DNA from: Clostridia bacterium
Lineage (GTDB): Bacteria > Bacillota > Clostridia > Christensenellales > UBA3700
Reading direction: 5' to 3'
Assembly: GCA_029067255.1 (NCBI GenBank)
Contig: JAIEEW010000133.1
Coordinates: 1-26,918 of the forward strand
Length of the DNA stretch: 26,918 nucleotides
Shown here: in pieces, positions 9,597 to 25,305 of the stretch
How the letters are laid out: each line of letters starts with the position of its first letter
Numbering within the stretch: position 1 is the stretch's first letter
Program-made: the position numbers and the translations under genes
Notes under the pieces: generated by a model
What the model saw: the letters and a program-made list of their open reading frames with translations, nothing else
Databases searched by the model: none
What the model was told of the DNA's origin: nothing

Positions 9597-9597
9597 T

Positions 9598-12474
9598 TTA
9601 CTTTACCTCCAAAATTCCTACAATTTCTCCGGTTCCTAAATCGCCGTTGTCGAAAATAAAAAGTCTTTCATCTTCCGTAATGCGGTAATTGACCGAGAAA
9701 GTTTGATTGTTATATTTGAACACTGCCGTGCCGTTTTCTCTCAATTCAACGGTTGCGCCGTTAAATTCAAAAGTACCTATAAATTCCTTATTCGTATAAT
9801 TAACAGGTCTGACGTTTCCGCAAGTCATCGTATGCTCGAATACGCTTAGGCTTGTCCCGCGAATATCTATAAAATCCGCCCGCAGCAAACCGTCGCGCGC
9901 AAACGCAATATCAATCGTGATATCTTCTTTATCAAGCAATTGATACTGATGGTTAAACAAAGCGGTTTTTAACGTCATGACGCCGTCTTCTATACGGTAA
10001 ACTCCGCTAACGTCAGCAGACAAAACTCCGTTGACAAAAGTCTTATAAGAATACAGTCCGTCTGCCGTCAACGTCAACTCCGAAGACAAAATATCCGCGT
10101 CTTTTGCAAACGTTGCCGTCCACGTTTTGACAAAATCGCAACCGCTGTAATCTACCTTGTCGAAAGACGGTTGCGGCGCGGCAGGACGCTCCCACTCGCT
10201 GTAAATCTCAATATCGCTTCTCATTACTCTCGCAAGCAATTCGTCAACGGAAATACTCTGCGACTTTTGCTCGTCAAGGTAAAGTCTTCCGTCTTCAAAT
10301 ATAGAATCAACTGTCAACAACGCTTCTGCGGAAAGCCCGCTCAACGCGTCTTGCAAAGTTTGTTTGCCTGCAAGTCCGTCTATACGTTCAAAACCGTTGC
10401 GATAATATATTGTAAACGCAAAACTGTTGCTCACTCTTTTGACGTATATTTGAGTATCTCCGTCGAATACGTATTCTGCCAGGTCTTCAAAATAATATTT
10501 CTTTCCGTCGATCGTGTATTCGGTGATATAATTCGCGTTGTCTTCATCGTAAATAAATTTTACGGTCTTCAAATCTACGCTCGCTATTACCCCATTCCAA
10601 CCGGCGGGATAAACAATAGAATGTTGATTATACCCCAAAAACGACAAAGTCGACATCTCGGATAGTTTTGTCTTGAACGTTACTGAAACCGCATATTCGC
10701 CCGCAGTCATTGCAAACTCCGCTTGCACAACGGTATTATTGAGATTTTCTCCTTTGCTTACGCCGTCTACCAAGATATCGTCAATATTTGCATGCATAGA
10801 TACTATCTTAACCGTCGCTCCTATGGGAATAATAAAAACGCTTCCCATATCAGGCATTGCCGACGTCTGCTCGGTTTTTCCTTGCGCTTCAAACTCATAC
10901 ATCCAGCCTACGCTTGCTCCTTTGCTTCCGTCTATATGCAACTCTCTAGCCTGAGCAGTAACAACGTAAACTGTAATTTCTTTTCCTTTGCTCAAATCGG
11001 CGGTATAGATTCTAGACCTATCAACGTCGTAATATGCAACGGGAGTTTTCCCATTCGCCGAATATATCAACGAATTAAGTCCGGCAGACTGCAAATCGTA
11101 TTTTTCCGTCCTTACTATGCCGACCTGTTCTGTCAAAACTGAATTGTCAAAATAATCAACAAATATCACTTTTACGGTAGCGGTCAATTTGAAATCGGCA
11201 AATACTATAATATCTGACGTAATATTTTCCAATTTATCAACAACTTGACCGTTTAGTAACCATCCGTTGAAAACGTATCCCTGTTCGACCGCTAATTGCG
11301 ATACGGCTGGTTGCAAAGAAATGGCTCCGTCGCTGTTTTTATATTTAGAAGGATTGATTTCAAGATTTACGTCTTCGAAATTTAATCCGCCGCCAATCTT
11401 GTATACAACGTTATATACTCGCTCTTCGACCGGCGGAAGAGACTCGACGATCTCTTCTCTTTTGGCTTCAAGCGTCTGTTTTATAGCAAGTTGCTCAGTC
11501 GTGGGTTGAGAAATTTTATTCAACAACGACAAAGCATAATCTATGCTCGGCAGATTATCTGCGTCCATAGATTCGGTGGGCGGCAACAAATCAAGAACGT
11601 TTTGCAAGAATTTTTGCTCATCGTCTACAACAGGCGCAGCATTCACGTTTATCTCGATTTTTACAGTCTTTGTTATGCCATGCAAAGTAAAAACAAACTC
11701 AATCTCGTTGTCTGTTATCGCCAACGGTTCGCTCTTGTCATAATCCCAATCCTTTATAAGTTCGTCCGCCGCATTTGCGTACTTCGCGTATACTTGTACT
11801 CCGAGAAAATCAAAATACTCGCCTTCGAAATAAGTAAGTTTTATAGGCATTCTTTTTATGTAAATCGACTGCAAAATTTTTGCTTCGATCTCAATAGCAA
11901 TATCTGCTGTCTTTCCGCCGTAACTTACAGTAACGCGCGTGTCGTCTATTTGTAACTTTCCTTTCTTATCATACGTCCAATCATTTACGATTTCGCTTTT
12001 GCCATTGTTGTAATGCGCGGTTACTTCCATTCCGTCTGTTTGGAAATAAGAATGTTCGATATATTTCAATTTATCCGGCTTCTTTGTAATTTCTATTGAC
12101 ACGAGATCTTTCTTTACTACGCTGATTGCAAAAGACGCGCTTTTTACCGTTCCCTTATCCGCATAAGAAACTTTAATCTCCTTATCGTCAAGACTTATCT
12201 GCTTTTTATCCAAAGTATAATTAGTTATGATTTGGCTTTTTTTGCCGTAATATGCTTTGACGACCATACCTTCAGTATCTACGTCTTCTCCTTCGATATA
12301 ATCCGTTTTTTCGGGCAAATCTACTATTTCTATCTTTGTCAAATTAGAATGCGGAATAAGCGTTGCCATAAGTATTATCGAAACGATCAGTGTAATGACG
12401 CTTAATATTATAAGCCCCGCCCCAATCGGATTTTTTATACAAAATCTTTTTATCTTATCTAAAAAATTCTTCAT
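9598..12474 (-). CDS. N-terminally membrane-anchored surface protein with three bacterial Ig-like (Big_3-like) repeats
   Basis: Basic N-terminus then TM (IGAGLIILSVITLIVSIILMATLI). Three repeats of the type SIEITKKPDKLKYIE...GMEVTAHYNNG, a helical linker, a GYVFNGW InlB-B-like repeat and beta-rich C-terminal units. Confidence 0.78.
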   Translation of the reverse strand: MKNFLDKIKRFCIKNPIGAGLIILSVITLIVSIILMATLIPHSNLTKIEIVDLPEKTDYIEGEDVDTEGMVVKAYYGKKSQIITNYTLDKKQISLDDKEIKVSYADKGTVKSASFAISVVKKDLVSIEITKKPDKLKYIEHSYFQTDGMEVTAHYNNGKSEIVNDWTYDKKGKLQIDDTRVTVSYGGKTADIAIEIEAKILQSIYIKRMPIKLTYFEGEYFDFLGVQVYAKYANAADELIKDWDYDKSEPLAITDNEIEFVFTLHGITKTVKIEINVNAAPVVDDEQKFLQNVLDLLPPTESMDADNLPSIDYALSLLNKISQPTTEQLAIKQTLEAKREEIVESLPPVEERVYNVVYKIGGGLNFEDVNLEINPSKYKNSDGAISLQPAVSQLAVEQGYVFNGWLLNGQVVDKLENITSDIIVFADFKLTATVKVIFVDYFDNSVLTEQVGIVRTEKYDLQSAGLNSLIYSANGKTPVAYYDVDRSRIYTADLSKGKEITVYVVTAQARELHIDGSKGASVGWMYEFEAQGKTEQTSAMPDMGSVFIIPIGATVKIVSMHANIDDILVDGVSKGENLNNTVVQAEFAMTAGEYAVSVTFKTKLSEMSTLSFLGYNQHSIVYPAGWNGVIASVDLKTVKFIYDEDNANYITEYTIDGKKYYFEDLAEYVFDGDTQIYVKRVSNSFAFTIYYRNGFERIDGLAGKQTLQDALSGLSAEALLTVDSIFEDGRLYLDEQKSQSISVDELLARVMRSDIEIYSEWERPAAPQPSFDKVDYSGCDFVKTWTATFAKDADILSSELTLTADGLYSYKTFVNGVLSADVSGVYRIEDGVMTLKTALFNHQYQLLDKEDITIDIAFARDGLLRADFIDIRGTSLSVFEHTMTCGNVRPVNYTNKEFIGTFEFNGATVELRENGTAVFKYNNQTFSVNYRITEDERLFIFDNGDLGTGEIVGILEVK

Positions 12475-12512
12475 TTGTCTATCTTCCTTCTTTAATTATC
12501 CATTTATTTGCA

Positions 12513-12830
12513 TTATTTTTTTGTACTTTCCCCTTTTATTATAATTGAAATATATAAGGTTTCTTTTGATGACCATTTCTCAATACTGCTTAGATATTTT
12601 TGCGCTTCTATATTCGAATCTAAAACTGACTCCCCTTGATAATACCAGCCGCAACCACTACTAGTTAACTCTCTATTTTCATCGTATAGTAATATATCTC
12701 CGCCTAAAATTACTTTGTTGTCTTCAAGCAAATTTTCTAGCAAACCCGTATAGTCGCAATAATTCCATACTGTACCGTAAATTCTCCATTCATCATAACT
12801 TATACTAACGCAATTTATACCTTTCTTCAT
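12513..12830 (-). CDS. Putative immunity protein, Imm40-like
   Basis: 105 aa with ILGGDIL...GWYY...SNIEAQKYL, matching the GGD/W pattern I recall for Imm40. AGGAG RBS; last gene of the AT-rich array. Confidence 0.65.
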   Translation of the reverse strand: MKKGINCVSISYDEWRIYGTVWNYCDYTGLLENLLEDNKVILGGDILLYDENRELTSSGCGWYYQGESVLDSNIEAQKYLSSIEKWSSKETLYISIIIKGESTKK

Positions 12831-12856
12831 AATAAATATATCTCCTATTTGCCTAT

Positions 12857-12881
12857 CGTTGCCGCAACTTGCTGTCCGTCC
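12857..12881 (-). repeat. 25-bp intergenic relic of the toxin Hint-coding sequence (copy of 16089-16113)
   Basis: cgttgccgcaacttgctgtccgtcc versus cgttgccgtaacttgctgtccgtcc: 24/25 identical, same orientation, compared base by base. Confidence 0.9.
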
Positions 12882-12887
12882 TATTGA

Positions 12888-13274
12888 TTATTTGCTGTAT
12901 GCTATTTCTATATCGCCGTCGGCAAATCCATAACCCACTGCTTCCGCATTTTTAAGCGCTGTGGAATATTGTCCTTGCTGAAGATAATCTTCTAGCAATG
13001 TTTCTACTTGTTCCAAACATTCTTCCCAGCCGCCTTCTATTTCAAAATATAATAATCTATCATTGCAATGACTTGCATAAATTCCATCTCCGCACGCCCA
13101 GTCGCAATCGTACTCATCATACTCGTCAAATGCTACTAAATCAACGCTATACTTATCGTCTGATTCTTCGTCTGCTTCTTCATAGATAAGAACACAGTAC
13201 GCCGCCGCGTCAACTTTAACTTGTTGCATTTCTGCATTCATCCATTCATCAAATTGTTTCTTCACATTTTCCAT
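12888..13274 (-). CDS. Acidic 128-aa protein, putative orphan immunity protein
   Basis: Very D/E-rich, with YSVDLV...DCDWAC and GYGFADGDIE motifs. Sits inside the immunity array with a short intergenic gap. Family not named with confidence. Confidence 0.6.
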   Translation of the reverse strand: MENVKKQFDEWMNAEMQQVKVDAAAYCVLIYEEADEESDDKYSVDLVAFDEYDEYDCDWACGDGIYASHCNDRLLYFEIEGGWEECLEQVETLLEDYLQQGQYSTALKNAEAVGYGFADGDIEIAYSK

Positions 13275-13289
13275 TATTCTATCACCTTT

Positions 13290-13880
13290 TTATTCCGTTC
13301 TATTTTTGCTAAATCCTATGCCGGTAAATTTATTTTTAGCGATTATAGACTTGAATCTTTCGGATACTACTATAAAAGTGCTGTATTCAGTTACAAATCT
13401 TGCATCATATTTTAATCTAAATATGTCCATGTTGTCGGGAACCTTTTCAGATTTTATAGACGGTATATAAACGTATAATTTCCCATTTTCTGACTTACTA
13501 TTCCAAAATATAGTCTTATCTATATCGAGCGCATCTGGCACTGTATTTAGTACATTTGCTATACAATACCCCTCCAATTTTTCTTTGTTGTAATGCTCTA
13601 CTTTTATGGGTATATACTGTATTCCAGTAATTCCCGCTCCCTCTATTGCTTCTCTCATTCTTGGCGAAAAAATTGGCACCATTTCAGTGTTTTGTAAAAA
13701 GTCATCAGGCGTTCCGTCGTCTTCTTCAAGTTCGGCAAAAAATTTAATATTTTCGCTACCTGTAAACTCCTTACATATTCTAAAAATATTTCTATCTATT
13801 TTCAAATCTTTTAGATTTGTAACGCACACCATCGGATCTTTTACTGCATGTTCGCAATTCAATATTCTAAAATATTTCAT
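13290..13880 (-). CDS. Putative immunity protein, Imm11/DUF1629-like (paralogue 2)
   Basis: PDDFLQNTEMVPIFSPRMREAIE..GITGIQYIPI, YCIANVLN..DALD, DIFRL, IVVSERFK..I...KFTGIGF pattern. AAGGA RBS. Confidence 0.75.
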   Translation of the reverse strand: MKYFRILNCEHAVKDPMVCVTNLKDLKIDRNIFRICKEFTGSENIKFFAELEEDDGTPDDFLQNTEMVPIFSPRMREAIEGAGITGIQYIPIKVEHYNKEKLEGYCIANVLNTVPDALDIDKTIFWNSKSENGKLYVYIPSIKSEKVPDNMDIFRLKYDARFVTEYSTFIVVSERFKSIIAKNKFTGIGFSKNRTE

Positions 13881-13890
13881 ACTTTTCCTT

Positions 13891-14478
13891 CTAATCCGCC
13901 TTTATTTTGCAAAATCCTATACCAGTGAATTTGTTTTTTGCTATTACTGACTTAAATTTTTCAGAAACAATTATAAATCGACTATAATCAGTTGCAAACC
14001 TATCGTCATATTTCAATCTAAAGATGTCCATGTTGGAAATCGCTTCTGATTTTATAGACGGTATATATACAGTGAATTTCCCATTATCTGACCGACTATT
14101 CCAAAAAATAGTCTTGTCAATGTCAAGCGCATCCGAAACCGAATTTAGTACATTCGCTATACAATACCCTTCCAACTTTTCTTTGTTATAGTGCTCAACT
14201 TCTATCGGTATATACTGTATTCCTGTAATTCCTGCTTCTTCTATGGCTTTTCTCATCCTAGGCGAAAAGATTGGCACCATTTCAGTGTTTTGCAAAAAAT
14301 CATCGGGAGTTCCATCACTTTTCGCTGTTTTGGGAAAAAATTTAATATTTTCACTACCAACAAACTCATCGCAAATTCTAAACTTATTTCTACCTATTTT
14401 CAAATCTTCAAAATTTGTTATACATACCATCGGATCTTTTACTGCATGTTCGCAATTCAATATTCTAAAATAGTTCAC
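13891..14478 (-). CDS. Putative immunity protein, Imm11/DUF1629-like (paralogue 1, GTG start)
   Basis: Same motifs as 13290..13880 and near-colinear with it. GTG start at 14478 with AAGGAG upstream. Confidence 0.75.
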   Translation of the reverse strand: MNYFRILNCEHAVKDPMVCITNFEDLKIGRNKFRICDEFVGSENIKFFPKTAKSDGTPDDFLQNTEMVPIFSPRMRKAIEEAGITGIQYIPIEVEHYNKEKLEGYCIANVLNSVSDALDIDKTIFWNSRSDNGKFTVYIPSIKSEAISNMDIFRLKYDDRFATDYSRFIIVSEKFKSVIAKNKFTGIGFCKIKAD

Positions 14479-14500
14479 AACCTACTTTCTCCTTTGCTTA

Positions 14501-15511
14501 TCAGTCTTCCTTTATCCACCACTCACCATAGCCACCGCTATCAGGTAATTGACTGTCTTTAAGATTATAATGTCTTTTATTAAAAGTACATGCTTCTTTT
14601 AATTTAAGACATGGCGTGAGATCTCCATCGATTATGTTAGTATATAAAAAGTCGAAACACTGCAAGTTAGGATACCTTTCAAAAAATTTTATCGACGGTA
14701 TACTTCCGCAATTCCTAAGTACCAAACATTCCAATGAGTCAACACATTTCATTTCTTCCAAAAAACTCAAATCACACTTCTTGATATTCTCCAATATCAA
14801 CACTTTCAAATTCTCAAGATTTTTAATTTCGGATATATCCTGTAATTTTGGGCAGGAGTCTATCCTTAATTTTTTAAGATTCGGGACCTTTGATATTCCT
14901 TCTATACTACTCATTGACCTGCAATAAGATAAACTTAATAAATGCAAGTTCTTAATTCTTTCGATTCCTGAAAGATCCTTAACATTGCCTTGTGTAAAAA
15001 ATACTATTTTCAACTTTTCAGGGTTTTCAATAAAATCAAATGAAAAGTCTTTAGGTCCATGTAATCTTAAATCTACAAGCCCTTTTATTTCCCGAATTAT
15101 TTGAGACTTTACTTTACCATCATCATACTGTGCATAAGCCGCTACTGACGATTTATCCAAATTCTTAAGTTGATTTGCTTGTGCAGTATCCAAAATTTTT
15201 AATTTAGGAAATTTGGACAAATCAATACTGGTTGATTTATTTTTTACATAATAAGATAATTCCGTAAGATTTACAAACCTATAAATCGCATTACTTACAA
15301 TGATATTGCCGCACAATTCTAGATGTTTTACTACTTCTGGATTCTCAATTTTATATAAAAAGTCCAAAGAAACTGATTTCAAACAATCATCAGCATCAAT
15401 CCAAATAAAATCGCTTCTATTTTTATTGATGTATTTCATACAATGTTCTATTCTATTTGAATCTTGCGGAAGTTCTATTTTTACACTTCCATCTCCACAT
15501 TTTTTTATCAT
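14501..15511 (-). CDS. Leucine-rich-repeat protein, probable cognate immunity protein
   Basis: Repeating LxxLxLxx units (LHLLSLSYCRSM, LKKLRIDSCPKL, LKVLILENIKK, LECLVLRNCGSI, LQCFDFLYTNI). No signal peptide; starts 10 nt after the toxin stop. Confidence 0.8.
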   Translation of the reverse strand: MIKKCGDGSVKIELPQDSNRIEHCMKYINKNRSDFIWIDADDCLKSVSLDFLYKIENPEVVKHLELCGNIIVSNAIYRFVNLTELSYYVKNKSTSIDLSKFPKLKILDTAQANQLKNLDKSSVAAYAQYDDGKVKSQIIREIKGLVDLRLHGPKDFSFDFIENPEKLKIVFFTQGNVKDLSGIERIKNLHLLSLSYCRSMSSIEGISKVPNLKKLRIDSCPKLQDISEIKNLENLKVLILENIKKCDLSFLEEMKCVDSLECLVLRNCGSIPSIKFFERYPNLQCFDFLYTNIIDGDLTPCLKLKEACTFNKRHYNLKDSQLPDSGGYGEWWIKED

Positions 15512-15521
15512 CTTTACTCTC

Positions 15522-15878
15522 CTAATGTACCCATTTATGGTAAAACCAATCGTTTGCTAAAAGTTTTTTATAACTCTCCTTAAATGGTATATCGCCATAT
15601 TTAAATCCGGGACTTGCTATTTTATTTAACAATTTCTCGCCGTCTTTTAAGTAACCGTTCATTAAATCTGCTTCTTTTATAAATGCTTCCATATCATTTT
15701 TGCACGGATAAAATTTTTCGCTTCCTTCCACTAACGTTCCTTTAAATTCTTTTACCTTAGATTTTATTGAAACTTCTCGGCGAGCCAGTGTTCCTTTACC
15801 TACGTATACATGTTCCGTTCCATCTTTCAATTTAACTTTGAATTCATACGCTCCAACTTCTTTTTTCTTACAAGCAGA
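15522..15878 (-). other. C-terminal toxin domain, GIY-YIG (URI-fold) nuclease-like, aa 1857-1974
   Basis: G-A-Y strand, YVG strand, Arg shortly after, helical Glu (EAFIKEADL) and distal Asn (LLNKIASPG), in the canonical GIY-YIG order. Confidence 0.72.
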
Positions 15879-18800
15879 ATTATGTACGGCAATGCCATCG
15901 CCGTCGCCGACAAAATAAGTATGGTTGTCCGCTACTTCAAAGTTATAAACTTTGGCGGGACTATCAAGGATTTCATGCTGTACTTGCTCGACTATTACTT
16001 TCTCGCCGTTGACGTTGACGAGTACGTCGCCCGCTCTTAGATCTTCGGCGGATACCCAATCGTTGTTGGCATAGAATTTATGTCCGGGCGTTGCCGTAAC
16101 TTGCTGTCCGTCCGAAGTAGACACCGTAACCAATTCGTCTACTTCGTTTTCAAACGTCTGCAATACTCGCTTCTCCGACACCTTTCCGGTAGCAGGATTA
16201 TAACTCTTTACCTTATCTCCTACTCTTACGTCTTCTATACACTTGATCGCTCCGCCCGCCATAAGCACAACCGTGCCTGCGACAAAGCAGAATTTCATTT
16301 TGCCGAGAGCCTTTCCTACGCCGTGAATCAGTACGCCGGTAGCAAATCCCACGGTAAACGATTTGAGTATATCTTCTATGCTACCGCCGTCTGCCCAAGT
16401 CATTGCCGCTTCTGTCAAGCCGTCGATAAGACCTGCGCCGAACCAACCAACGCCCGGTATAGCGGAAAGAACGCCTGATACTGCCGCTACGCCCACGCGT
16501 AGCCAGTTGACTTGATCGAGTTTTTTGCCTTGAACGACAGTCTGCATGAAGACTTCCATTCCCGCGCCTATAAATGCGCCCATAATATACGGAGCCGCTG
16601 CGGTAGTAACTCCGCACGTTACCGTGCTGATTGCCGCGACTATAATTACGCCAACGCATATCATTCCTATCGCAACAATCGCTCCGGCAAGTCTATCCAA
16701 CCAAGTCGCTTTGTCTTCTTCTTCATGCGGGAATTCAAGTTTTGTAAGGTTGCCGTCCGCATCTACGGTATAATACTCGTTATTGCCAAGCGTCTTTTCC
16801 AAATCGTAGAATTCCTGTACGTCTATGCCCAATAAACTCTCATCTTGTTCGCTAAGAAGATATGCCGACAATGCCGAATAACTAATATAAACAAAGTTTA
16901 AAGTATCTACTGTAAAACCGTTTGCAGTCTGATCTGCAATATATTTTTCATATTCGCCTTTGGCTATCGCCGGATCAAGCATAGTATTAAGAGAAGTTGC
17001 TTTAATGGTAGTATCATTGCCAAGATTAGGATCATATACGCATCTTCCTTCGTCATAACTATATACAGCCCCGCTGTCTTTAATAAAGTATTCTTCTTCT
17101 ACAGGGAACGAACTATATTTTACTAATGTATCTTCTACACTATAAACTATGTATTTATTATTTGCCACATAATGACACGGTCCAAAATTTTGCGTATATG
17201 ATAACACATAACTGCAACTTTGTTTTTCTGGTTGAAAATCCTTGCTGGTTTGATAAAGTTCAATCCCATTACCTATATCTTCTTCCGTAATAACATACTG
17301 TCTAGGCAATGCGACAAACCCAGCGCCATAATATACAAAGCCATTATCGTCAACACTATACGCTTCTTGATAATTCGTATACCCAAAACCTAATACTTCT
17401 TCTTTGTTCGGCAAAACAATCATTGCTGGAAAAACGTTTATTTGATCATAATAATATAGATCAGTCATAACAATCGAATACAAGAACATCTCGTCTTCGG
17501 TCAAATCCAACTCATTCGTTATTTCGCTATCACGTATATTGCCAAGCACTTCTTCCTTACTAGGCTTTACTTCGTCGCTTAAAGTATTGTCAACGCTGTA
17601 ATTGCCCAACTCAAAGTTGTTGGCAACAACGGAATTATCTGTTACGCTTTCCGATTGAACGGGTACGACGTTGATTTCGTTGTTTATCTTATTAAAGACG
17701 CCGAGATCGCTCCAACCGCCAAACGCGCTTATAAACGTGATAACGACTATGAGCAAGAACGCGGTAAACAGCGTTACTGCGCCGTATTTACGCAATTTGT
17801 TCTGTCTTACGAATTCCTTATCGGAGAACGATTCTCTGCCGTATATCGGCGATACGGATTGCGTATTTATCTCAAAGGCTTTTCTCTTTCTCCTTACGAT
17901 ATAAACCAAGAATACCGTAAATATCAAACCAAGCATGCTTATCATTCCGCCCAATGCGACTTTGCTCGCCGACGGTAAGGAATCAAACGTTCCGCTCAAT
18001 TTTTCTATTTCAATATCCGTACCGCTTTGGACGGCTGTCGTACCTTTCGCTATCCACAGCGCTTTAAGTACGATTTTTCCGTCTACGTCGCTAGGTACGG
18101 TCATTGAGAAATCGGAATAAATCTTACCGCTTGTCGAAGTGGTCTGCCAAATCCAGCCTACAAATACAAAACCTGCTCTGGTAACGTTGGGAAGAGAAAT
18201 CGTTGTTCCCGCCGCGACTTGAAGACTGTCGCTTGAAAGCAATTCTCCGTCAATGAAATGTATTCTTATTCTACCGCCCGTACCGCTTTGCAAAGCGTCT
18301 TCGTCCTGCTCGCTTTCGCGTACCCACAATGCGTCCAGTCGCAGATATTCTACGTTTGCAAGCGACGTTATCTGTCCATAATATACTTTGTTGTTTCCGT
18401 CGGTTTCTTTCTCTCTCCAACCGAAGAAGGTATAACCGGTTCTGGTCGGGAAAGGCAACGTAACCTTATCGCCGACGTGCGCTTGAATAGACTGATTAAG
18501 ATTACCGTCATAAAGCGCTATTTCGGTAGTCTTAAAGTGCCATACCGCGACAAAAGTCGGATTTGCCGACGTAGGTATATATTCGCCGTTATACACCGCG
18601 CCGCCATACTCCCAACCGCCGAAAGTCCAACCGTCTTTGCTTGCCGTAGGAAGTTGGATAGGTTCGCCTATCTCGACTTTCATTCTATCAATAATTTCTC
18701 CGCCGTCGGTATCGAAATCGAGATACGTATACTTTTGAGAGATCTGCTGCCAGACGTAAAGCGCGCCGCTCTTTTGGGGAACGAATACGTTGTCCGCAAT

Positions 18801-21446
18801 AAGTTCGTCTTCATAAAGCCATCCGTCGAAAACAAACAGTTCGCTTTGAAGTTTAGGTATGGGAAGTTGTATTTCCTGACCTACGAAAACGTGATAATGC
18901 TTTGTTATTTCGTCGTCTTCCTGCTCGAGTTGCAGATATACGTCCGCATAGCCGACAGGCGCGCTTATAATAACGCTGAATTCGACTGTGTTGCCCAATC
19001 TATCGGCAAGGGTAAAATCGTATACGCCGCCGTCAGAAAACCACATATCCGATACTTCGTCGAAATTATATATGGAAGTTTCGTTATTATGCTTGATTTT
19101 TACTATACTGTACAAATCCAATTCATTTGACAATGATTTTAATATGAATCCATTCAGACCGCTTTCAGTAACGGTATTGTTTTTGCTAAAAGTCTTTTCA
19201 ATAAATTTGCCGTTTCTAAACAGACTTAACGTAGCCGTACCGCTCATCTCTCCCGGTCTGACATAAACGGTGTCGTATTCGCAGACCGCATTGTTGGAAT
19301 TAGTTTCACGGACAGTATACACGCCGCTCGGAGCATTAGCCGAAACCAACTGATATTCGACTGATACTCCATAAACTATATCGTACGTTTTTTTAGTAGC
19401 CTTGTGAGTAAGCGTAACAGTATTACTTTCAAAGTCGGCGACCTTGAGAAACGCGAAATTCATTACTCCTTCTTCTATTTCGCCCGTATCGGGAGAAACG
19501 TAACGGTACTTTCGTCCGTTCAGAGAAGGCAATCCCGCTTTCATATATGATTGTTCCGTATCGTTTGTAAATACAATAACGTCTTTTGTAAAATTCATTT
19601 CCAGAATTTTATCGTCCGCAACGTCGGCAGTTTGGTAACTTTCCGGATCTGTGGAATCAAAATAGCGTTCGACAATCAACGATTTAATATTTTTATCGAC
19701 TGCCGTTAGAACGTCTTTTTGCGACGCATACGTTTTGCCGTCGTATACGTAATTTCCTTTATTCTTACTTATTTTTGCGCGCTCTATCTCATAAGCGAAA
19801 TCGTACGCGCCGCCGAAATCTGAAAATGCAAAGATAGCGTTGCCCGCGCCCTTTGTAGGCATCACTACTGCATAATACTTACTCTGCATATCGGAAAAAC
19901 TGTACAATCCGTTCAGATACGCTTCGTTTACAGACGGATCTTTCGACGTGTCTTTATCCACGATTTCAAATCTGAAAGTAAAGTGGAACAAATCTCCGGA
20001 AATATCTTTGCCTGTCAAATATCTGGGATTGCCCCAAAATTCCGCTTTATATATACCTTCTTCGTAAATAGTGCCTTGCAACGTTTTCGTCTTATAATCC
20101 GATCCGTGATTTTGAGCAATATTCCTGACAAAGACTTCCTTGCCTTCGTCTTCTATTTTATATAGTTTTCCTACAACGGGAGCAACAGTTCCGTCCGTCG
20201 CGTTAAGATTCCACGTCGCTTTTCCCGCAACGTAAGCGGGATATTCTCCAGTCGTATATACTCTCTGACTGTCGGGAGTAAAAAGACTTTGACCGAAATA
20301 ACCCACTACGGCGTCGTTGACTTCCCGTCGATCGACGAAAATTGTGTGTTTAATACTTTTTCCGAGTTCGCGATTTATAGTGAAATCGTAGCGACCGTGG
20401 TCAAGAAATACCTGTCCATCATAAGCCGTATGCTCTTCTCCGCCGTTGAATCTGTATTTTATATCGTAAGCCTCGACGCCCATCGTATCTACTCTGAATC
20501 CGTTGAGAGTTACGTCCCCGTCGAGTATCGTTTCGAAATCATCGATAGATATTGCGCCGCTGCCTTCGTCGTCGCCTACCTTTCCAAATGTACTTGCGTT
20601 ATGGAAAAGCACCGCTCCCGAGTTCTGTACCAAATAAAACTGGGCGGTTTCCAACATATTTACGTATTCGGTTTCCGTTTTGGTTTTAGTCATTCCCAGC
20701 CAATTTTTGTAATCCCAACTGGTGGTAATTTTCAATTCGTAAGCAAACGTCAACTTAATAAATACGCCTGCGGACAAGTCTTTGCCGGACGGAGTATAAA
20801 GAGTATAATAATTAGTGCGATAGAATTGATCGAGCGGAACTACTTCGGTAAAATCCACGGTATGCAGACTGGTTTTGCTTTCGCCGTCTTTGGTCTGCCA
20901 CTCCCACGCGCCGTTCGGCTCGCTCTTCTTTTGGAAAATAAACGCGCCCGTACCTATTACGCCCAGTCTATCTATATCTCCGACTTTCTGCGCCGTGTCG
21001 TCAGATATCGAATATACTTGCGTCTTATAGTATCCGTCGTCATAAATACGTCTTTTACTCAGTTCTTCTGGATTGTTGAAATTGTAAGACAACTTTATCG
21101 ACACTGAATTGCCCGTAACTCCATAAGCGCTGTAGCCGGAAATATTGCCTTTGTCGATCAACGGAGTCGTCAAATCGCTTTCCGTACTTACAGAAAGATT
21201 AACAAGATTATTTTTCAAAGGATGATTGTAAATCGAGACTTTCTTGTCTTCGCTCTCTTTGTAGCCTTTGTTATCTTCCAGTTTGTACGCGTTGACCCCT
21301 ATCGACGCCGACCTGGTTTGCGTCGCCGCTTTCTCCTGAGCAGCATAAACGGCGTTATCTTCAAAGTCCCCCAAACTCAAAGAGATGCCCAACCCCAATC
21401 CTAAACAAAGCAGTAATGTCAAACATACGGTAATTATCTTTTTCAT
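15522..21446 (-). CDS. 1974-aa membrane-anchored polymorphic toxin: signal peptide, ectodomain, InlB-B-like repeats, two-TM hairpin, hydrophobic pre-toxin region, Hint domain, GIY-YIG-like nuclease tip
   Basis: Signal peptide MKKIITVCLTLLLCLGLGLG. Four LP...G(Y/W/F)xFxGW repeats. TM1 GGMISMLGLIFTVFLVYIV-RRKRK; TM2 KLRKY-GAVTLFTAFLLIVVITFISAF. Hint CFVAGT...TPGH...VYNFEVADNHTYFV...HN/S. Tip GAYEF...YVGKG..R...E...NKIASPG. Followed by immunity-like genes. Confidence 0.88.
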   Translation of the reverse strand: MKKIITVCLTLLLCLGLGLGISLSLGDFEDNAVYAAQEKAATQTRSASIGVNAYKLEDNKGYKESEDKKVSIYNHPLKNNLVNLSVSTESDLTTPLIDKGNISGYSAYGVTGNSVSIKLSYNFNNPEELSKRRIYDDGYYKTQVYSISDDTAQKVGDIDRLGVIGTGAFIFQKKSEPNGAWEWQTKDGESKTSLHTVDFTEVVPLDQFYRTNYYTLYTPSGKDLSAGVFIKLTFAYELKITTSWDYKNWLGMTKTKTETEYVNMLETAQFYLVQNSGAVLFHNASTFGKVGDDEGSGAISIDDFETILDGDVTLNGFRVDTMGVEAYDIKYRFNGGEEHTAYDGQVFLDHGRYDFTINRELGKSIKHTIFVDRREVNDAVVGYFGQSLFTPDSQRVYTTGEYPAYVAGKATWNLNATDGTVAPVVGKLYKIEDEGKEVFVRNIAQNHGSDYKTKTLQGTIYEEGIYKAEFWGNPRYLTGKDISGDLFHFTFRFEIVDKDTSKDPSVNEAYLNGLYSFSDMQSKYYAVVMPTKGAGNAIFAFSDFGGAYDFAYEIERAKISKNKGNYVYDGKTYASQKDVLTAVDKNIKSLIVERYFDSTDPESYQTADVADDKILEMNFTKDVIVFTNDTEQSYMKAGLPSLNGRKYRYVSPDTGEIEEGVMNFAFLKVADFESNTVTLTHKATKKTYDIVYGVSVEYQLVSANAPSGVYTVRETNSNNAVCEYDTVYVRPGEMSGTATLSLFRNGKFIEKTFSKNNTVTESGLNGFILKSLSNELDLYSIVKIKHNNETSIYNFDEVSDMWFSDGGVYDFTLADRLGNTVEFSVIISAPVGYADVYLQLEQEDDEITKHYHVFVGQEIQLPIPKLQSELFVFDGWLYEDELIADNVFVPQKSGALYVWQQISQKYTYLDFDTDGGEIIDRMKVEIGEPIQLPTASKDGWTFGGWEYGGAVYNGEYIPTSANPTFVAVWHFKTTEIALYDGNLNQSIQAHVGDKVTLPFPTRTGYTFFGWREKETDGNNKVYYGQITSLANVEYLRLDALWVRESEQDEDALQSGTGGRIRIHFIDGELLSSDSLQVAAGTTISLPNVTRAGFVFVGWIWQTTSTSGKIYSDFSMTVPSDVDGKIVLKALWIAKGTTAVQSGTDIEIEKLSGTFDSLPSASKVALGGMISMLGLIFTVFLVYIVRRKRKAFEINTQSVSPIYGRESFSDKEFVRQNKLRKYGAVTLFTAFLLIVVITFISAFGGWSDLGVFNKINNEINVVPVQSESVTDNSVVANNFELGNYSVDNTLSDEVKPSKEEVLGNIRDSEITNELDLTEDEMFLYSIVMTDLYYYDQINVFPAMIVLPNKEEVLGFGYTNYQEAYSVDDNGFVYYGAGFVALPRQYVITEEDIGNGIELYQTSKDFQPEKQSCSYVLSYTQNFGPCHYVANNKYIVYSVEDTLVKYSSFPVEEEYFIKDSGAVYSYDEGRCVYDPNLGNDTTIKATSLNTMLDPAIAKGEYEKYIADQTANGFTVDTLNFVYISYSALSAYLLSEQDESLLGIDVQEFYDLEKTLGNNEYYTVDADGNLTKLEFPHEEEDKATWLDRLAGAIVAIGMICVGVIIVAAISTVTCGVTTAAAPYIMGAFIGAGMEVFMQTVVQGKKLDQVNWLRVGVAAVSGVLSAIPGVGWFGAGLIDGLTEAAMTWADGGSIEDILKSFTVGFATGVLIHGVGKALGKMKFCFVAGTVVLMAGGAIKCIEDVRVGDKVKSYNPATGKVSEKRVLQTFENEVDELVTVSTSDGQQVTATPGHKFYANNDWVSAEDLRAGDVLVNVNGEKVIVEQVQHEILDSPAKVYNFEVADNHTYFVGDGDGIAVHNSACKKKEVGAYEFKVKLKDGTEHVYVGKGTLARREVSIKSKVKEFKGTLVEGSEKFYPCKNDMEAFIKEADLMNGYLKDGEKLLNKIASPGFKYGDIPFKESYKKLLANDWFYHKWVH
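15879..16289 (-). other. Hint / intein-like (pretoxin HINT, BIL-type) autoprocessing domain, aa 1720-1856
   Basis: C1 in CFVAGT, block-B TPGH, block-F VYNFEV...HTYFV, terminal His-Asn followed by Ser. 137 aa with no homing endonuclease insert. Confidence 0.93.
18040..18900 (-). repeat. Four InlB B-repeat-like (Listeria-Bacteroides repeat) modules in the toxin ectodomain; boundaries approximate
   Basis: IQLPIPK..LFVFDGWLY; FDTDGG...IQLPTASKDGWTFGGW; VTLPFPTRTGYTFFGW; ISLPNVTRAGFVFVGW. Confidence 0.75.
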
Positions 21447-21755: not shown

Positions 21756-22541
21756 TCAAACCAAAGCGGTTTTGTTCAATACCAAATTGCTGAGCGCGCC
21801 AAAGCCGACTGCGAAAATCGCTCCGCCAGCAAGACACATAAACACGTTGACAACGGTGGAATCAAGCGGCGTTATCATCGGTATCATTGTGAACAACAAC
21901 ATACTTACCGCGAACGATCCAAGAATCGAAAGCCATAATTTTTGCTTTGCCGCAACGCTTACAAGCAAATAAATCGCAACAAAAACCGCAGCCAACAGTA
22001 TTTTGGATACTATACACATAAAGATTCCGCTTGCGCCTGCGCTACCTACGTCAAACGACAGTCCCGCGATCGCGCCGCCTATCATCGCTCCGACAAAATA
22101 TGCGAGCAACATTATTGCTCCGCCGACGTATCCAACGAGAGTCTTTGAGATTACGTAATCGCTTTTTTTGGAACGGATGGTAAAAAGATTTTTTGCATAG
22201 CCGCTTTTGAAATCGTCGGCGACGAATATGCTCACCAAAATCGCTATAATAAAATATATCATATTTATGTTGCACATACTCGTCAAGCCCATTGACATTT
22301 CCGCGCCGCTTAAAGCCCCCAAAGATTGCCAAGCGTTGGTAAAAGTATCTGCCGCCGCTTCTACGCCGTTTGCGGGCGCTGTTGATACGGCTGTCGTCAT
22401 TACCAAAATCAGTATAGGCATAGCAAAACAAACGCCAGCCATAATATAGATAAGCGGCATGGTAAACATTCTCTTAAAATCCACTTTGAGCATGCTTTTC
22501 AATCTTTTTCCAAAACCTTGTTTTTCAAATTGCATTTCCAT
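21756..22541 (-). CDS. ABC-2 type transporter permease (copy 2)
   Basis: About six hydrophobic segments; KSMLKVDFKRMF N-terminus; DDFKSGYAKNLF...SKTL motif typical of BcrB/ABC-2-like permeases. Confidence 0.88.
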   Translation of the reverse strand: MEMQFEKQGFGKRLKSMLKVDFKRMFTMPLIYIMAGVCFAMPILILVMTTAVSTAPANGVEAAADTFTNAWQSLGALSGAEMSMGLTSMCNINMIYFIIAILVSIFVADDFKSGYAKNLFTIRSKKSDYVISKTLVGYVGGAIMLLAYFVGAMIGGAIAGLSFDVGSAGASGIFMCIVSKILLAAVFVAIYLLVSVAAKQKLWLSILGSFAVSMLLFTMIPMITPLDSTVVNVFMCLAGGAIFAVGFGALSNLVLNKTALV

Positions 22542-22542
22542 T

Positions 22543-23442
22543 TCAGCGATTCTCCTTATTCATTAAATCTATATAATACTCTTCCAATCCGATTTTATCC
22601 GTTTTGATTTCCGTAACCAAAACATCGTTTTCATAGAGAAAACGGGCGACGTCTTCGGCTTTCGCGTCGTCATAGACGCGGATATAATCGTTTTCGATTT
22701 CTGCGCGCGAATATTTGTTTTTGAGCGCTTTCAACGCTTCGTCCGTTTTGTCAGTCTTCAAAGCGACGTATACTCGGCAATCGGATTCAAGTTCTTCCGC
22801 GCTCATTTCTTTTATCATTTCTCCGCCGCGTACAATTCCGTAATGCGTCGCGATTTTTTCAAGTTCGCCCAAAATATGCGACGACACCAACACCGTACAA
22901 TTATAGTTTTTTGTGATATCGATCAGCGTTTCGCGCATTATTCTCATTCCGTCCGCGTCTAGTCCGTTTATCGGTTCGTCCAAAACCAGCAACATGGGAT
23001 TACCCAACAAAGCCATAGCGATACCTATGCGTTGTTTCATACCAAGCGAACAGTTTTTGAATTTATTTGACGCCGAGCCTTCCATTCTTACGATCTTAAG
23101 CGCTTTTCTTACTTCGTCTTTCGCGTTCGAGATGCCGAGATTAGCGGCTTGCAACATCATATTGTTCCAAACGCTGTAATTAGGAAAACACCCCGGCGCT
23201 TCGATAAGCGAGCCTATTCTCGCTCTTACGTCCGCATCTTTGCTATCCCGTCCGAAGAGTTTGACTTCTCCGCTATTTGGCGCGAGCAAACCGCAAATAA
23301 TCTTTTCGGTCGTAGATTTTCCACTACCGTTTTCTCCGATAAATCCATAAATACTGCCTACCGGCACTGTCATATTCAGACCTTTAAGGGCTTGTTTCTG
23401 CCCAAAATTCCTAGTAAGATTTCTTATTTCTATCGCGTTCAT
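22543..23442 (-). CDS. ABC transporter ATP-binding protein (copy 2), BcrA-like
   Basis: Walker A GENGSGKST, signature CSLGMKQR, Walker B LLVLDEPINGLD, H-loop SSHIL. Confidence 0.95.
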   Translation of the reverse strand: MNAIEIRNLTRNFGQKQALKGLNMTVPVGSIYGFIGENGSGKSTTEKIICGLLAPNSGEVKLFGRDSKDADVRARIGSLIEAPGCFPNYSVWNNMMLQAANLGISNAKDEVRKALKIVRMEGSASNKFKNCSLGMKQRIGIAMALLGNPMLLVLDEPINGLDADGMRIMRETLIDITKNYNCTVLVSSHILGELEKIATHYGIVRGGEMIKEMSAEELESDCRVYVALKTDKTDEALKALKNKYSRAEIENDYIRVYDDAKAEDVARFLYENDVLVTEIKTDKIGLEEYYIDLMNKENR

Positions 23443-23552
23443 ATAAACCGCCTTTCATAGTTATTTTCGTTGCTTTCGCAACGTTGGTATTAGAGTAAGT
23501 GTTTTTGATTTGCCCGCTTTTGGCAAATATCCGTTCCGTTGATCCGATAAGA

Positions 23553-24374
23553 TCAATAAACGTCGCGTTTGTTTAATATCAGCGTTCCAAGAACGTTGTA
23601 GATTACCGCCCAAGCCGCCGATACGACGAGACATACGATCACCGATATAAAATTTGCTGAAAGACAAGCGTAGACCGACGAGCCGTACAAGAATATATTG
23701 AGTAACGGCGAATTCCCTACTATTGCCGCTACTCCGATAATAGGGATACCAGTACCAAGAACAAAACACAGCGCAATTGAAATACCGAAACGCGAACGGA
23801 AAATGACGTTGATAAAGGTATAAAGACTTGCCCATCCAAAACTCATCAGCATTTTACCTAAAATCGCGCAGATAAGAGAACCCGCGTTTACAGAAAACGA
23901 TAATCCCGTAAACATGCCCGATAAAACGCCGCCGATCAGATAAGTTAAGCACATACACGCCATAGAAAATACGCCTATCAAAGTTTTGGATATCATATAA
24001 TCCTGCTTTTTTGCGTGAGTGGTAAATAATTGCTTGACGTAACCGCTCTTATAGTCGTGTCCTATAAATATGGAGATCATTATGCCACAGAAAATAAACA
24101 CCATATTCATATTAGCGTATTCGCCCATATCGCTTATGACGTACAACGGCGAATTTGCGGCTATAATCTGCCACGCATTGGTAAACATGGAAGTCTTTTC
24201 CCCTTCGTCGCCCGTTGCTCCCATTGATACAAGCGCGGGTATCAGCGCGGCAATAATTAAGAAGATATACAATAAAGGCGTATGGAACAGACGGTAAAAG
24301 TCCACGCCCAACATACCCTTTATTCTTTTGAAAAATCCCTGCGATTCGAATTTAAGTTCCTTCGCGTTTTCCAT
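23553..24374 (-). CDS. ABC-2 type transporter permease (copy 1)
   Basis: Paralogous to 21756..22541 (GMLGVDFYRLF; HDYKSGYVKQLF...SKTL). Start set at ATG 24374 because RBS spacing matches the paralogue. Confidence 0.88.
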   Translation of the reverse strand: MENAKELKFESQGFFKRIKGMLGVDFYRLFHTPLLYIFLIIAALIPALVSMGATGDEGEKTSMFTNAWQIIAANSPLYVISDMGEYANMNMVFIFCGIMISIFIGHDYKSGYVKQLFTTHAKKQDYMISKTLIGVFSMACMCLTYLIGGVLSGMFTGLSFSVNAGSLICAILGKMLMSFGWASLYTFINVIFRSRFGISIALCFVLGTGIPIIGVAAIVGNSPLLNIFLYGSSVYACLSANFISVIVCLVVSAAWAVIYNVLGTLILNKRDVY

Positions 24375-24375
24375 T

Positions 24376-25278
24376 TTATGCATTCTCCTTTTTAGACATC
24401 AATTCGATGTAGTATTCTTCTAGACCTATCTTATTCTTTTTCACTTCAATTACAGAAATACAGTTGTCGAACAGACATTTTACTATCTCCTCGCTGTCTT
24501 CGACGTCGTATACTCTAACGCAACCTTCTTCAATCTTTACGTTGTCGTATTTTTTTCGCAAAACTTCTTCCGCTAGCGCCATATCGTTTGTTTTCACAGA
24601 GACGAAAACGCGCGATCTCGATTCCATTTCTCTAGCGGAAATCTCCTGTATCATTTTACCTTGCCGTATGATCCCGTAATGCGTGGCTATCTTTTCGAGT
24701 TCTCCCAAAATATGCGAAGAAATAAGCACAGTACAATTATAGTTTTTTGTAATATCAACCAAGATCTCGCGCATAATTCTCATACCGTCGGTATCTAGAC
24801 CGTTTATAGGTTCGTCAAGGATCAGCAACGCAGGACTTCCCAACAATGCCATTGCGATACCTATGCGTTGCTTCATACCAAGCGAACATTTTTTGAACTT
24901 CATTTTCGCGCACTCTTCCATTCTGACGATTTTAAGCGCGCGCTTTATTTCTTCCGAGCGGTTGGGCAACCCTAAATTGATGACTTGCATCATAAGATTA
25001 TCCCATACGCTTGAATTAGGAAAACAACCCGCGTTTTCTATCAACGCCCCGATTTTACCGCGTACTCCCGCGTCAGCATAGTCTTTCCCAAACAATTTTA
25101 TTTCCCCGCCATTAGGGACAAGATGTCCGCATATAAGTTTTTCCGTTGTGGATTTACCCGAACCGTTTTCTCCGATAAATCCGTATATACTGCCTACCGG
25201 AACCGTCATGTCCAAATGATCAACGGCGTACATACCGCGAAAACTTTTGGATAAATTTCTTATTTCGATTGCGTTCAT
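24376..25278 (-). CDS. ABC transporter ATP-binding protein (copy 1), BcrA-like
   Basis: Walker A GENGSGKST, CSLGMKQR, LLILDEPINGLD, SSHIL. Start set at ATG 25278 (MNAIEIRNL, as in the paralogue; AGGAG 7 nt upstream). Confidence 0.95.
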   Translation of the reverse strand: MNAIEIRNLSKSFRGMYAVDHLDMTVPVGSIYGFIGENGSGKSTTEKLICGHLVPNGGEIKLFGKDYADAGVRGKIGALIENAGCFPNSSVWDNLMMQVINLGLPNRSEEIKRALKIVRMEECAKMKFKKCSLGMKQRIGIAMALLGSPALLILDEPINGLDTDGMRIMREILVDITKNYNCTVLISSHILGELEKIATHYGIIRQGKMIQEISAREMESRSRVFVSVKTNDMALAEEVLRKKYDNVKIEEGCVRVYDVEDSEEIVKCLFDNCISVIEVKKNKIGLEEYYIELMSKKENA

Positions 25279-25305
25279 TTTCATTCTCCTTTTGATTACG
25301 ACTCA

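Follow-up and report, generated by a model that had tools for sequence, protein, structure and literature searches.

We analyzed a 26,918-nucleotide stretch of DNA (the window), contig JAIEEW010000133.1 of the Clostridia bacterium assembly GCA_029067255.1, a fragmented metagenome-assembled genome (MAG; 303 contigs, 70% complete) of the Christensenellales. The longest gene in the window (positions 15522 to 21446, reverse strand) is one uninterrupted frame of 1974 codons and encodes P0001, a 1974-residue polymorphic toxin that contains a mid-protein hairpin of two transmembrane (TM) segments. We regard this hairpin, with good confidence, as the seam of a gene fusion that acts as a topology adaptor; the side of the membrane on which the toxin tip lies is judged separately. 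The conservation of the hairpin, the occurrence of split and fused forms, the single clade of the fused forms, the homology of both halves, and the interface predicted between them were computed directly.

The architecture of P0001 is shared with 24 homologues of 1360 to 2037 amino acids (aa). All its parts are on the reverse strand and are given here from the N terminus. Positions 21342 to 21446 encode an N-terminal Sec signal peptide (aa 1 to ~26-35), in which a KK n-region precedes a hydrophobic core (Kyte-Doolittle score of 2.42) that is kept in the homologues; the putative cleavage site follows SLG or VYA. Next are a conserved N-terminal part (N-part; aa ~36-830, 18957 to 21341), which is predicted to lie outside and is related to separate secreted proteins encoded upstream of lipoprotein toxins, and Listeria-Bacteroides repeats (InlB B-type, Flg_new; aa ~831-1135, 18042 to 18956) in three stretches (Pfam PF09479, 3e-16; PF18998), which form a spacer between the N-part and the first TM segment. 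TM1 (aa 1162-1184, 17895 to 17963), followed by RRKRK, reads as a stop-transfer anchor running out-to-in. A basic loop (aa 1185-1221, 17784 to 17894; RRKRK ... KLRKY, net charge +6), predicted to be cytoplasmic, leads to TM2 (aa 1222-1245, 17712 to 17783), which by hydropathy and insertion scale would be an uncleaved signal anchor running in-to-out. A polar disordered linker (aa ~1246-1296) and a middle domain (aa ~1297-1581), together at 16704 to 17711 and predicted outside, precede TM3 (aa 1582-1609, 16620 to 16703), the third strong membrane segment. The chain ends with a Gly-rich helical module (aa 1610-1719, 16290 to 16619), which is Pfam negative, a self-cleaving PT-HINT or bacterial intein-like (BIL) domain (aa 1720-1857, 15876 to 16289; Pfam PF07591, 4e-30), and a variable C-terminal toxin tip (aa 1858-1974, 15525 to 15875) at the position of the nuclease tips of homologues.

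Scans of P0001 against Pfam and NCBIfam recognized only the Flg_new repeats and the HINT domain and gave no match to LXG/WXG, TPS, PAAR/VgrG, MuF, or PrsW-type trafficking domains. Export of P0001 appears to depend on its Sec signal peptide and internal TM segments. The homologues combine a constant body with exchangeable C-terminal toxin domains, and the locus, with its candidate immunity genes, fits a polymorphic toxin system save for a recognized trafficking domain.

The TM1-loop-TM2 hairpin

Membrane segments were called by Kyte-Doolittle scanning and an approximate Hessa-type insertion scale, to which all energies given below refer. Four segments of P0001 are predicted to enter the membrane autonomously, namely, the signal peptide (~-2.1 kcal/mol), TM1 (~-1.5 kcal/mol), TM2 (~-3.0 kcal/mol), and TM3 (~-2.4 kcal/mol). 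An earlier note, made from the sequence of the window, had placed a two-TM hairpin at 17700-17965, consisting of TM1-RRKRK, a ~35-aa loop, and KLRKY-TM2. These coordinates proved accurate, with the hairpin at 17712-17963 by both methods and a loop of 36-37 aa, containing 10 K/R and 4 D/E, between RRKRK and KLRKY.

A database search with aa 1150-1720 retrieved the 24 homologues, which are 33 to 84% identical to the query and all of which contain PT-HINT and/or Listeria-Bacteroides repeats. Two strong hydrophobic segments were present at the position of the hairpin in all 25 aligned sequences, and the loop between them was in each case 35 to 78 aa long with a net charge of +2 to +14. Ten more fused relatives were obtained: five by a search with the N-terminal 1160 aa (29 to 31% identity, with other tips), four by a profile of the module, and one by a cluster look-up. 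All ten keep the signal peptide, TM1, a basic loop (+4 to +12), TM2, and TM3. The individual residues of the hairpin are poorly conserved; what is kept is its position, hydrophobicity, and loop charge. Since the segments and the loop charge persist across homologues despite sequence drift, the hairpin is, as far as alignments can tell, a selected feature defined by these three properties. By the positive-inside rule, the loop is predicted to lie on the cytoplasmic side, as the note had proposed, and a shared outer location of the N-part and of the domain that follows TM2 is likewise supported.

The note had also likened TM1-RRKRK to the normal end of a surface protein. Although a hydrophobic segment and a basic tail are present, P0001 is not an LPXTG surface protein: no LPXTG motif was found before TM1, where the sequence reads ...DSLPSASK... 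and is not conserved, and the chain runs 785 aa further. The likeness was borne out by a split relative, described below, whose upstream gene ends in just this manner.

Split relatives and the probable seam of a fusion

A profile of TM3 and the module was searched against 1.84 billion cluster representatives and matched 170 of them. Among the best 150 of these 170 matches, 50 were proteins of 550 to 900 aa with a lipobox signal, 17 had another N-terminal signal or anchor, 9 were giants, and 65 were fragments. A lipobox pattern within the first 40 residues, present in 50 of the 76 relatives of 550 to 900 aa, identifies these as lipoproteins. P0001 carries TM2, without a lipobox, at the position of this signal, and the ~330 residues after the lipobox align with its middle domain (aa ~1297-1581). 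Judged from this alignment, the last ~750 aa of P0001, from TM2 onward, are the equivalent of a free-standing lipoprotein toxin in which TM2 replaces the signal peptide. A further free-standing unit, P0038 (locus L003), has the TM2 equivalent and a basic stretch at its start, and its alignment to P0001 covers aa 1211-1717. In the same locus (L003:2-7130), P0038 follows a HINT-less hairpin toxin that is truncated at the contig edge and a gene for 247 aa with a faint Imm40 match, and it precedes five small genes. This tandem resembles a toxin/immunity array that includes another complete toxin unit.

Six split loci from four clades of the tree were examined. Each of them has, directly upstream of its toxin unit, a gene for an exported protein of 911 to 1238 aa, at a spacing that ranges from a 4-nt overlap to 39 nt, and a profile of the N-part recognized all six upstream proteins in hmmsearch (E values of 1e-46 to 1e-142; profile positions ~18-790 or beyond). 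Four of them stop at the equivalent of P0001 aa ~827, without an anchor, and four lack the Flg_new repeats. In L015, the upstream gene (gene A) ends with a C-terminal TM segment. In L017, gene A contains Flg_new repeats and then ends with TM-KRRRFHI-stop, and its stop codon overlaps the start of the lipoprotein toxin gene (gene B) as ATGA. TM1-RRKRK of P0001 corresponds to this C-terminal TM segment and tail, and L017 is thus a homologue split in two genes exactly at the hairpin, for which the note had advised looking. The codons for KRRR in L017 (AAGAGAAGGAGA, within L017:5960-6010) hold a GGAG ~8 nt ahead of the ATG of gene B, which suggests that the basic tail of gene A doubles as the ribosome-binding site of gene B.

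Every N-part homologue found was either fused to a toxin unit or encoded directly upstream of one. Among the matched proteins of 1085 to 3455 aa, there was no stand-alone homologue of the N-part; all were fused toxins save for one partial record and two marginal matches to repeats only. Adjacency in six of six loci and the fused clade mark the N-protein and the toxin unit as two partners, which are predicted to interact.

A tree of the toxin unit, built with FastTree, places every one of the 36 fused units in one clade (SH-like support of 99) that is nested among split forms, which fits a single fusion event. Four rows scored as split lie inside the fused clade: P0050, a fragment; P0028, a probable fragment on a 3.7-kb contig; P0027, a frameshifted copy; and P0038. 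P0050 was rejected as a split form, being the same as the C-terminal part of P0179 (1949 aa) and lying on a 3.3-kb contig. P0027 was likewise rejected, being the long fused gene with frameshifts on a contig of 0.76x coverage. A search for related loci with a 23-row alignment of the module gave six loci. In L001 (L001:2201-7866, 0.76x coverage), a close homologue of P0001, 89% identical over the matched part, is distributed over four overlapping open reading frames, and these breaks are almost certainly sequencing frameshifts and not a natural split.

These data also bear on whether the long frame of P0001 is an artifact, arising from misassembly or from a sequencing error that deleted the stop codon between two genes. 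The fragmented state of the source genome, the existence of genuine two-gene relatives, and the frameshift-broken gene on the low-coverage contig of L001 speak for this explanation. We nevertheless discount it almost completely, because more than 30 independent homologues, 29 to 84% identical, keep the frame open through the hairpin; they come from different samples, including the cultured isolate Anaerocaecibacter muris CLA-AA-M11, and the breaks in L001 fall away from the hairpin. The fusion postulated in the note is hence backed by homologues.

To what extent the two halves belong together was also assessed by structure prediction. The middle domain (~285 aa) has an alpha/beta core that is modeled by AlphaFold2 (AF2) with a pLDDT of ~85-97. 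The N-part has no relative in Pfam and no sequence relative in the Protein Data Bank (PDB), the sequence profile of the toxin unit had no match in the PDB, the model of the middle domain had no Foldseek match in the PDB at an E value of <=0.001, and a Pfam search of the domain at E values up to 10 gave nothing usable. When aa 230-830 of the N-part were paired with aa 1299-1584 of the middle domain, three runs gave an ipSAE of 0.74, against 0.01 for the best control of three. Among solved complexes, 58 of 80 attained this mark, as did 2 of 110 mismatched pairs. The runs share at least 65% of their contacts, and the pLDDT of the partners is at least 68. If the numbering of the tool is that of the submitted segments, the confident contacts lie at aa ~277-693 of the N-part and aa ~1451-1529 of the middle domain. 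The latter is among the best-conserved stretches of the domain and is poorly ordered when the domain is folded alone. The N-part is thus predicted to bind the middle domain, and this score is unlikely to come from memorized structures, because no related solved structure exists.

We propose the following explanation. The wider family would be a two-gene, Sec-dependent polymorphic toxin system of mostly uncultured Clostridia. Gene A would encode a surface protein of ~900 to 1240 aa, secreted or membrane anchored, and gene B, directly downstream, a toxin of ~550 to 900 aa composed of a signal peptide (usually of the lipoprotein type), a ~330-aa domain, one strong TM segment, the Gly-rich module, sometimes HINT, and a variable nuclease tip, with the immunity gene next. 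In the clade of P0001, genes A and B would have been joined into one, such that TM1 and its basic tail represent the former C-terminal anchor of protein A and TM2 the former signal peptide of protein B, retained as an uncleaved signal anchor. When two exported proteins are fused head to tail, the rules of Sec topology make the second signal a stop-transfer sequence, and the second protein is left in the cytoplasm. A two-TM hairpin would be needed because, without the first TM segment, the second signal would stop transfer and strand the second protein inside. The hairpin would lead the chain into the cytoplasm and back out, with the basic loop remaining cytoplasmic, and the N-part and the middle domain, which are predicted to bind, would both come to lie on the outer face beside the membrane. 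The predicted binding itself lends support to such a shared outer face. Of the note's idea of an adhesin fused to a signal-anchored toxin, the fusion and the toxin with its own export signal stood, and the generic adhesin did not; a role of the N-part as an adhesin is one that we infer, and the N-part probably recognizes the target.

The relatives thus form a natural series: separate genes come first, next a gene pair whose first protein is TM anchored, and finally a single gene with the TM hairpin. This series predicts that both proteins work together as a single machine at the outer membrane surface of the cell, and it provides a clear example of a fusion of exported proteins in which a two-TM hairpin is required to hold both on the same side.

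The Gly-rich module and the side of the toxin tip

TM3 has the highest Kyte-Doolittle score in P0001 (2.85), forms a 28-residue helix in the AF2 model, and is present in every homologue and in the lipoprotein relatives. The module behind it consists of four helices (aa 1618-1638, 1648-1661, 1668-1685, and 1690-1715) with conserved polar positions (E1631, Q1635, N1647, R1650, D1686, D1692, and H1708), and its mean column identity of 72% in 23 homologues is far above the conservation of the hairpin. A Pfam search of aa 1575-1725 at E values up to 10 gave no match, PT-TG (PF14449) included, and the module is by this test not a PT-TG pre-toxin domain. In a wide VIA-align search with a 646-residue model, only HINT matched clearly; the helical module scored a Z of ~7 against assorted membrane helices, which is under the noise level for helical bundles.

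The same TM segment and Gly-rich module were observed near the C terminus of giants that have no mid-protein hairpin, namely, P0044 (aa 2460-2737, together with HINT) and P0161 (aa 1679-1802). From this occurrence, the module can be considered, at the level of sequence, a portable pre-toxin cassette. One of these two giants is called RHS repeat associated by its source, and searches for RHS gave no match in P0044 at an E value of <=0.001 and only a sub-threshold RHS-repeat match in P0161. The split lipoprotein relative P0125 contains, at aa ~700, a DPSGL motif (the signature of RHS-type autoproteases) between the module and the tip, where the P0001 clade has HINT. An RHS-type architecture was considered as a clue to topology and proved uninformative for all three proteins. 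For a free-standing toxin unit, P0088 (L015:6001-8328), NCBI gives the name "sulfite exporter TauE/SafE family protein", which is probably a misannotation caused by the hydrophobic Gly-rich module.

The note had predicted the halves on either side of the hairpin, including the toxin-bearing one, to be outside. As judged from sequence features, this holds for the N-part and the middle domain; it cannot be extended to the tip, since TM3 sits between hairpin and tip in every homologue, followed by three or four Gly-rich helices of marginal hydrophobicity; the C-terminal part can therefore not be treated as a single extracellular block. The hydrophobicity scales disagree on how many times the chain spans the membrane after the middle domain. 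On the insertion scale, the module is marginal for autonomous insertion (helix 3 at ~+4.5 kcal/mol, helices 2 and 4 higher), whereas Eisenberg hydrophobicity places helices 2, 3, and 4 within the range of helices that span the membrane in bundles. Among 87 sequences, clusters of K/R precede TM3, separate helices 2 and 3, and follow helix 4, and an acidic loop joins helices 3 and 4. Our working guess, to which we lean somewhat because polymorphic toxins must exit the cell, is that the module has an even number of spans, with HINT and the tip outside.

A tip on the cytoplasmic face of the producer is the principal competitor of this guess, and we consider it unlikely. The seam would be the same, and the Gly-rich helices, HINT, and the tip would lie inside, where the tip is checked by a cytoplasmic immunity protein; TM1, TM2, and TM3 would be the sole true spans, or the Gly-rich helices would add an even number. 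Only these three post-signal segments have negative insertion energies. A three-span path, with TM3 running out-to-in, helix 2 cytoplasmic, helix 3 in-to-out, and helix 4 out-to-in, agrees with the positive-inside rule in all loops across the 87 sequences and again leaves HINT and the tip cytoplasmic. In addition, a conserved IPG interrupts helix 3 in the AF2 model, similar to a re-entrant loop, and the candidate immunity proteins are cytoplasmic. However, every known class of polymorphic toxin, to our knowledge, exports its tip; variable tips and arrays of immunity genes point to conflict between cells; a cytoplasmic HINT would free the nuclease into the producer; and the Eisenberg values place helices 2, 3, and 4 in the bundle-spanning zone. 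Delivery from inside would require an additional step, for example, fusing membrane vesicles, membrane-to-membrane transfer, or self-export triggered through an oligomer of the module, and no conserved vesicle or export machinery was seen beside the split loci. We give little credence to the most far-reaching version of this topology, an undescribed delivery class of gut Clostridia in which a Sec-exported two-partner complex holds the toxin through the producer membrane by the TM segment and Gly-rich module, with the tip inside under immunity, and reaches the target by membrane-to-membrane transfer, vesicle fusion, or self-export, the hairpin form being its single-chain version.

Very improbable, in our view, is a topology with two spans only, in which the whole ~720-aa C-terminal part, including aa 1582-1719, stays soluble outside until it meets a target membrane. 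There are precedents, since hydrophobic pre-toxin regions of type VI secretion system (T6SS) effectors, such as the glycine zipper in Tde1 (PMC10240207), are described as entering no membrane but that of the target, and the same module occurs near the C terminus of the hairpin-less P0044 and P0161. These precedents meet the score of TM3, which is the most hydrophobic segment of P0001 and is conserved family-wide. The Sec translocon releases a strongly hydrophobic segment of a passing chain into the lipid as a stop-transfer sequence, and a segment such as TM3 would be released in this way; a chaperone-like partner for TM3 was not found.

The preferred reading, a fusion seam with both partners on the outer face, and the working guess on the tip have several points against them. 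(i) The six split loci were picked for long contigs and not at random, the gene A proteins of the sister clade (L004, L006, and L018) have no C-terminal TM segment, and the immediate two-gene ancestor with a TM anchor lies outside the sample. (ii) The tree is midpoint rooted, and the root does not fix the direction, fusion or fission. (iii) The membrane topology is one that we infer. On the approximate scale, TM1, TM2, and TM3 alone are autonomous, an odd count that, taken literally, would leave HINT, the tip, and the Gly-rich helices on the cytoplasmic side; a four-span bundle with both ends outside would violate the positive-inside rule, given the K/R clusters found family-wide. (iv) The reading leaves no account of how a toxin anchored two or three times in the producer membrane reaches another cell. 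The main gap is how a module lodged in the producer membrane acts on that of the target.

As to the last steps, TM3 and the module may carry the nuclease across the target membrane, by analogy with the TM and glycine-zipper regions of T6SS effectors, and HINT would free the tip through Asn cyclization. The note had called for a shedding event; the same chain already holds a candidate device, PT-HINT. The PF07591 match spans aa 1733-1857, and the TIGR models of intein N and C termini also match. The HINT model superimposes on the BIL domain of C. thermocellum (2lwy) with a Z of 23.4 and an rmsd of 1.2 over 137 residues at 43% identity, and the domain starts at Cys1720 and ends with HN, followed by S, in keeping with a PT-HINT/BIL fold. 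Its sequence makes HINT a likely shedding device for which self-cleavage is predicted. HINT was found in only 6 of 65 scanned sequences (the C-terminal part of P0001 and 64 relatives).

The tip of P0001 (aa 1858-1974) had no Pfam match at E values up to 10. At its position, AHH is found in homologues, and the domains of split or distant forms are WHH, Colicin-DNase, EndoU, LHH, Endonuclease_NS_2, and REase. Among the 65 sequences scanned, the tips of split relatives were WHH (16), Colicin-DNase (8), EndoU (5), LHH (3), and others, including REase-7; the distant fused relatives have Colicin-DNase, Endonuclease_NS_2, and Tox-REase-9. Every tip identified in the family is a nuclease, and the conserved hydrophobic module always lies ahead of such tips.

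Relation to known toxin systems and neighboring genes

The family counts 170 or more sequence clusters, most of which come from uncultured Clostridia of the gut and the environment. Named relatives come from Christensenella/Christensenellaceae, from Clostridia MAGs, and from the cultured A. muris CLA-AA-M11, which has the homologue P0015 and opens the way to experiments. The distribution is patchy, with the module in 2 of the 74 species genomes of the family to which the window belongs. The large N-protein, the middle domain, and the TM segment with its Gly-rich module have no Pfam family and no sequence relative of solved structure, and no description of them was found. No description of the family was found in the literature searched on related terms, and the note's remark that the layout has no described precedent holds for this literature. 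We consider the system a polymorphic toxin with an undescribed two-partner, Sec-dependent scaffold, of which the TM hairpin enables a single-chain form. The delivery of nuclease toxins into neighboring cells is poorly understood in Gram-positive bacteria that have no type VII secretion system substrates.

PT-HINT/BIL polymorphic toxins (Zhang et al. 2012, PMC3482391; 2lwy; MafB class 1 of Neisseria) resemble P0001 in having an N-terminal scaffold, HINT before a variable toxin, and downstream immunity genes, which for P0001 are candidates. P0001 differs from them by its mid-protein TM hairpin, third TM segment, and Gly-rich module, and its family by an obligate partner region, which most relatives encode as a gene of its own. 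Such an architecture was absent from the passages of the 2012 survey retrieved by term searches, and term searches of a 2026 survey of pre-toxin architectures (PMC13483458) likewise gave no description of the layout. The PT-TG domains of the latter survey, whose role is not known, are similar to the P0001 module in that they are placed just before toxin tips, sometimes with PT-HINT; according to the survey, PT-TG has a conserved unstructured 15-residue core, whereas the P0001 module is helical and hydrophobic.

The SitA proteins of Myxococcus are lipoprotein toxins passed on by TraAB-mediated outer-membrane exchange (PMC5562445, PMC8546572). They share with the P0001 family a Sec-exported polymorphic nuclease toxin, a lipoprotein anchor, a separate polymorphic surface protein, and cytoplasmic immunity, for which the P0001 locus has candidates. 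SitA, however, resides in a diderm's outer membrane and is transferred through membrane exchange, and the P0001 family has an internal TM segment and Gly-rich module and its partner gene directly upstream; this comparison is one of descriptions.

In the CdiB/CdiA system, as in P0001, the surface protein is very large and has a variable toxin at its C terminus, with an immunity gene (for P0001, a candidate) next to it. Ruhe and coworkers are reported to have found in 2018 that the toxin half of CdiA is withheld until the receptor is bound. The topology of P0001 would come from fixed TM segments and not from arrested secretion, and the closest named relatives of the organisms are Christensenellales and Clostridia. 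No TPS domain, FHA repeats, or CdiB were detected by Pfam in P0001 or its neighbors, and the locus is not a contact-dependent inhibition system by this measure.

T6SS effectors of the prePAAR/Tse6 type carry TM domains next to the toxin. The Agrobacterium effector Tde1 (PMC10240207) resembles the P0001 family in that a hydrophobic, helical Gly-rich region is joined to a nuclease that has to pass the cytoplasmic membrane of its target. T6SS effectors are injected and are shielded by chaperones in the cytoplasm of the producer, whereas members of the P0001 family are Sec exported and their region is expected in the producer membrane. No sequence match (Pfam) or fold match (VIA-align) was found between the P0001 module and these effector regions.

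Downstream of the toxin gene, positions 13290 to 15511 of the reverse strand hold the candidate immunity genes. A leucine-rich repeat (LRR) protein (14501-15511; Pfam LRR_4, 6e-12) is encoded 10 nt after the toxin gene and is followed by two Imm11 proteins (13891-14478 and 13290-13880; Pfam 7e-18 and 5e-16). An LRR gene also follows the close homologue of P0001 in L001. By hydropathy, the LRR protein has no hydrophobic segment, and no signal was found in any of the candidates, which are accordingly expected to be cytoplasmic. Beyond these genes (6357-12474, reverse strand) are a 958-aa protein with an N-terminal anchor and a weak Big_3 match and a 1079-aa protein with a signal peptide and a weak Flg_new match. 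Both were rejected as relatives of the N-part, as blastp gave no similarity at an E value of <1e-3.

Directly upstream of the toxin gene (21756-25284, reverse strand) are two pairs of ABC-2 permease and ATPase genes. They are probably unrelated to toxin export, because no ABC transporter genes lie beside the six split-form loci. The G+C content is 0.32-0.34 at positions 12001-16000 of the window, which hold the tip, LRR, and immunity genes, and 0.40-0.48 in the body of the toxin gene; a low-G+C stretch of this kind is typical of an exchanged toxin/immunity cassette.

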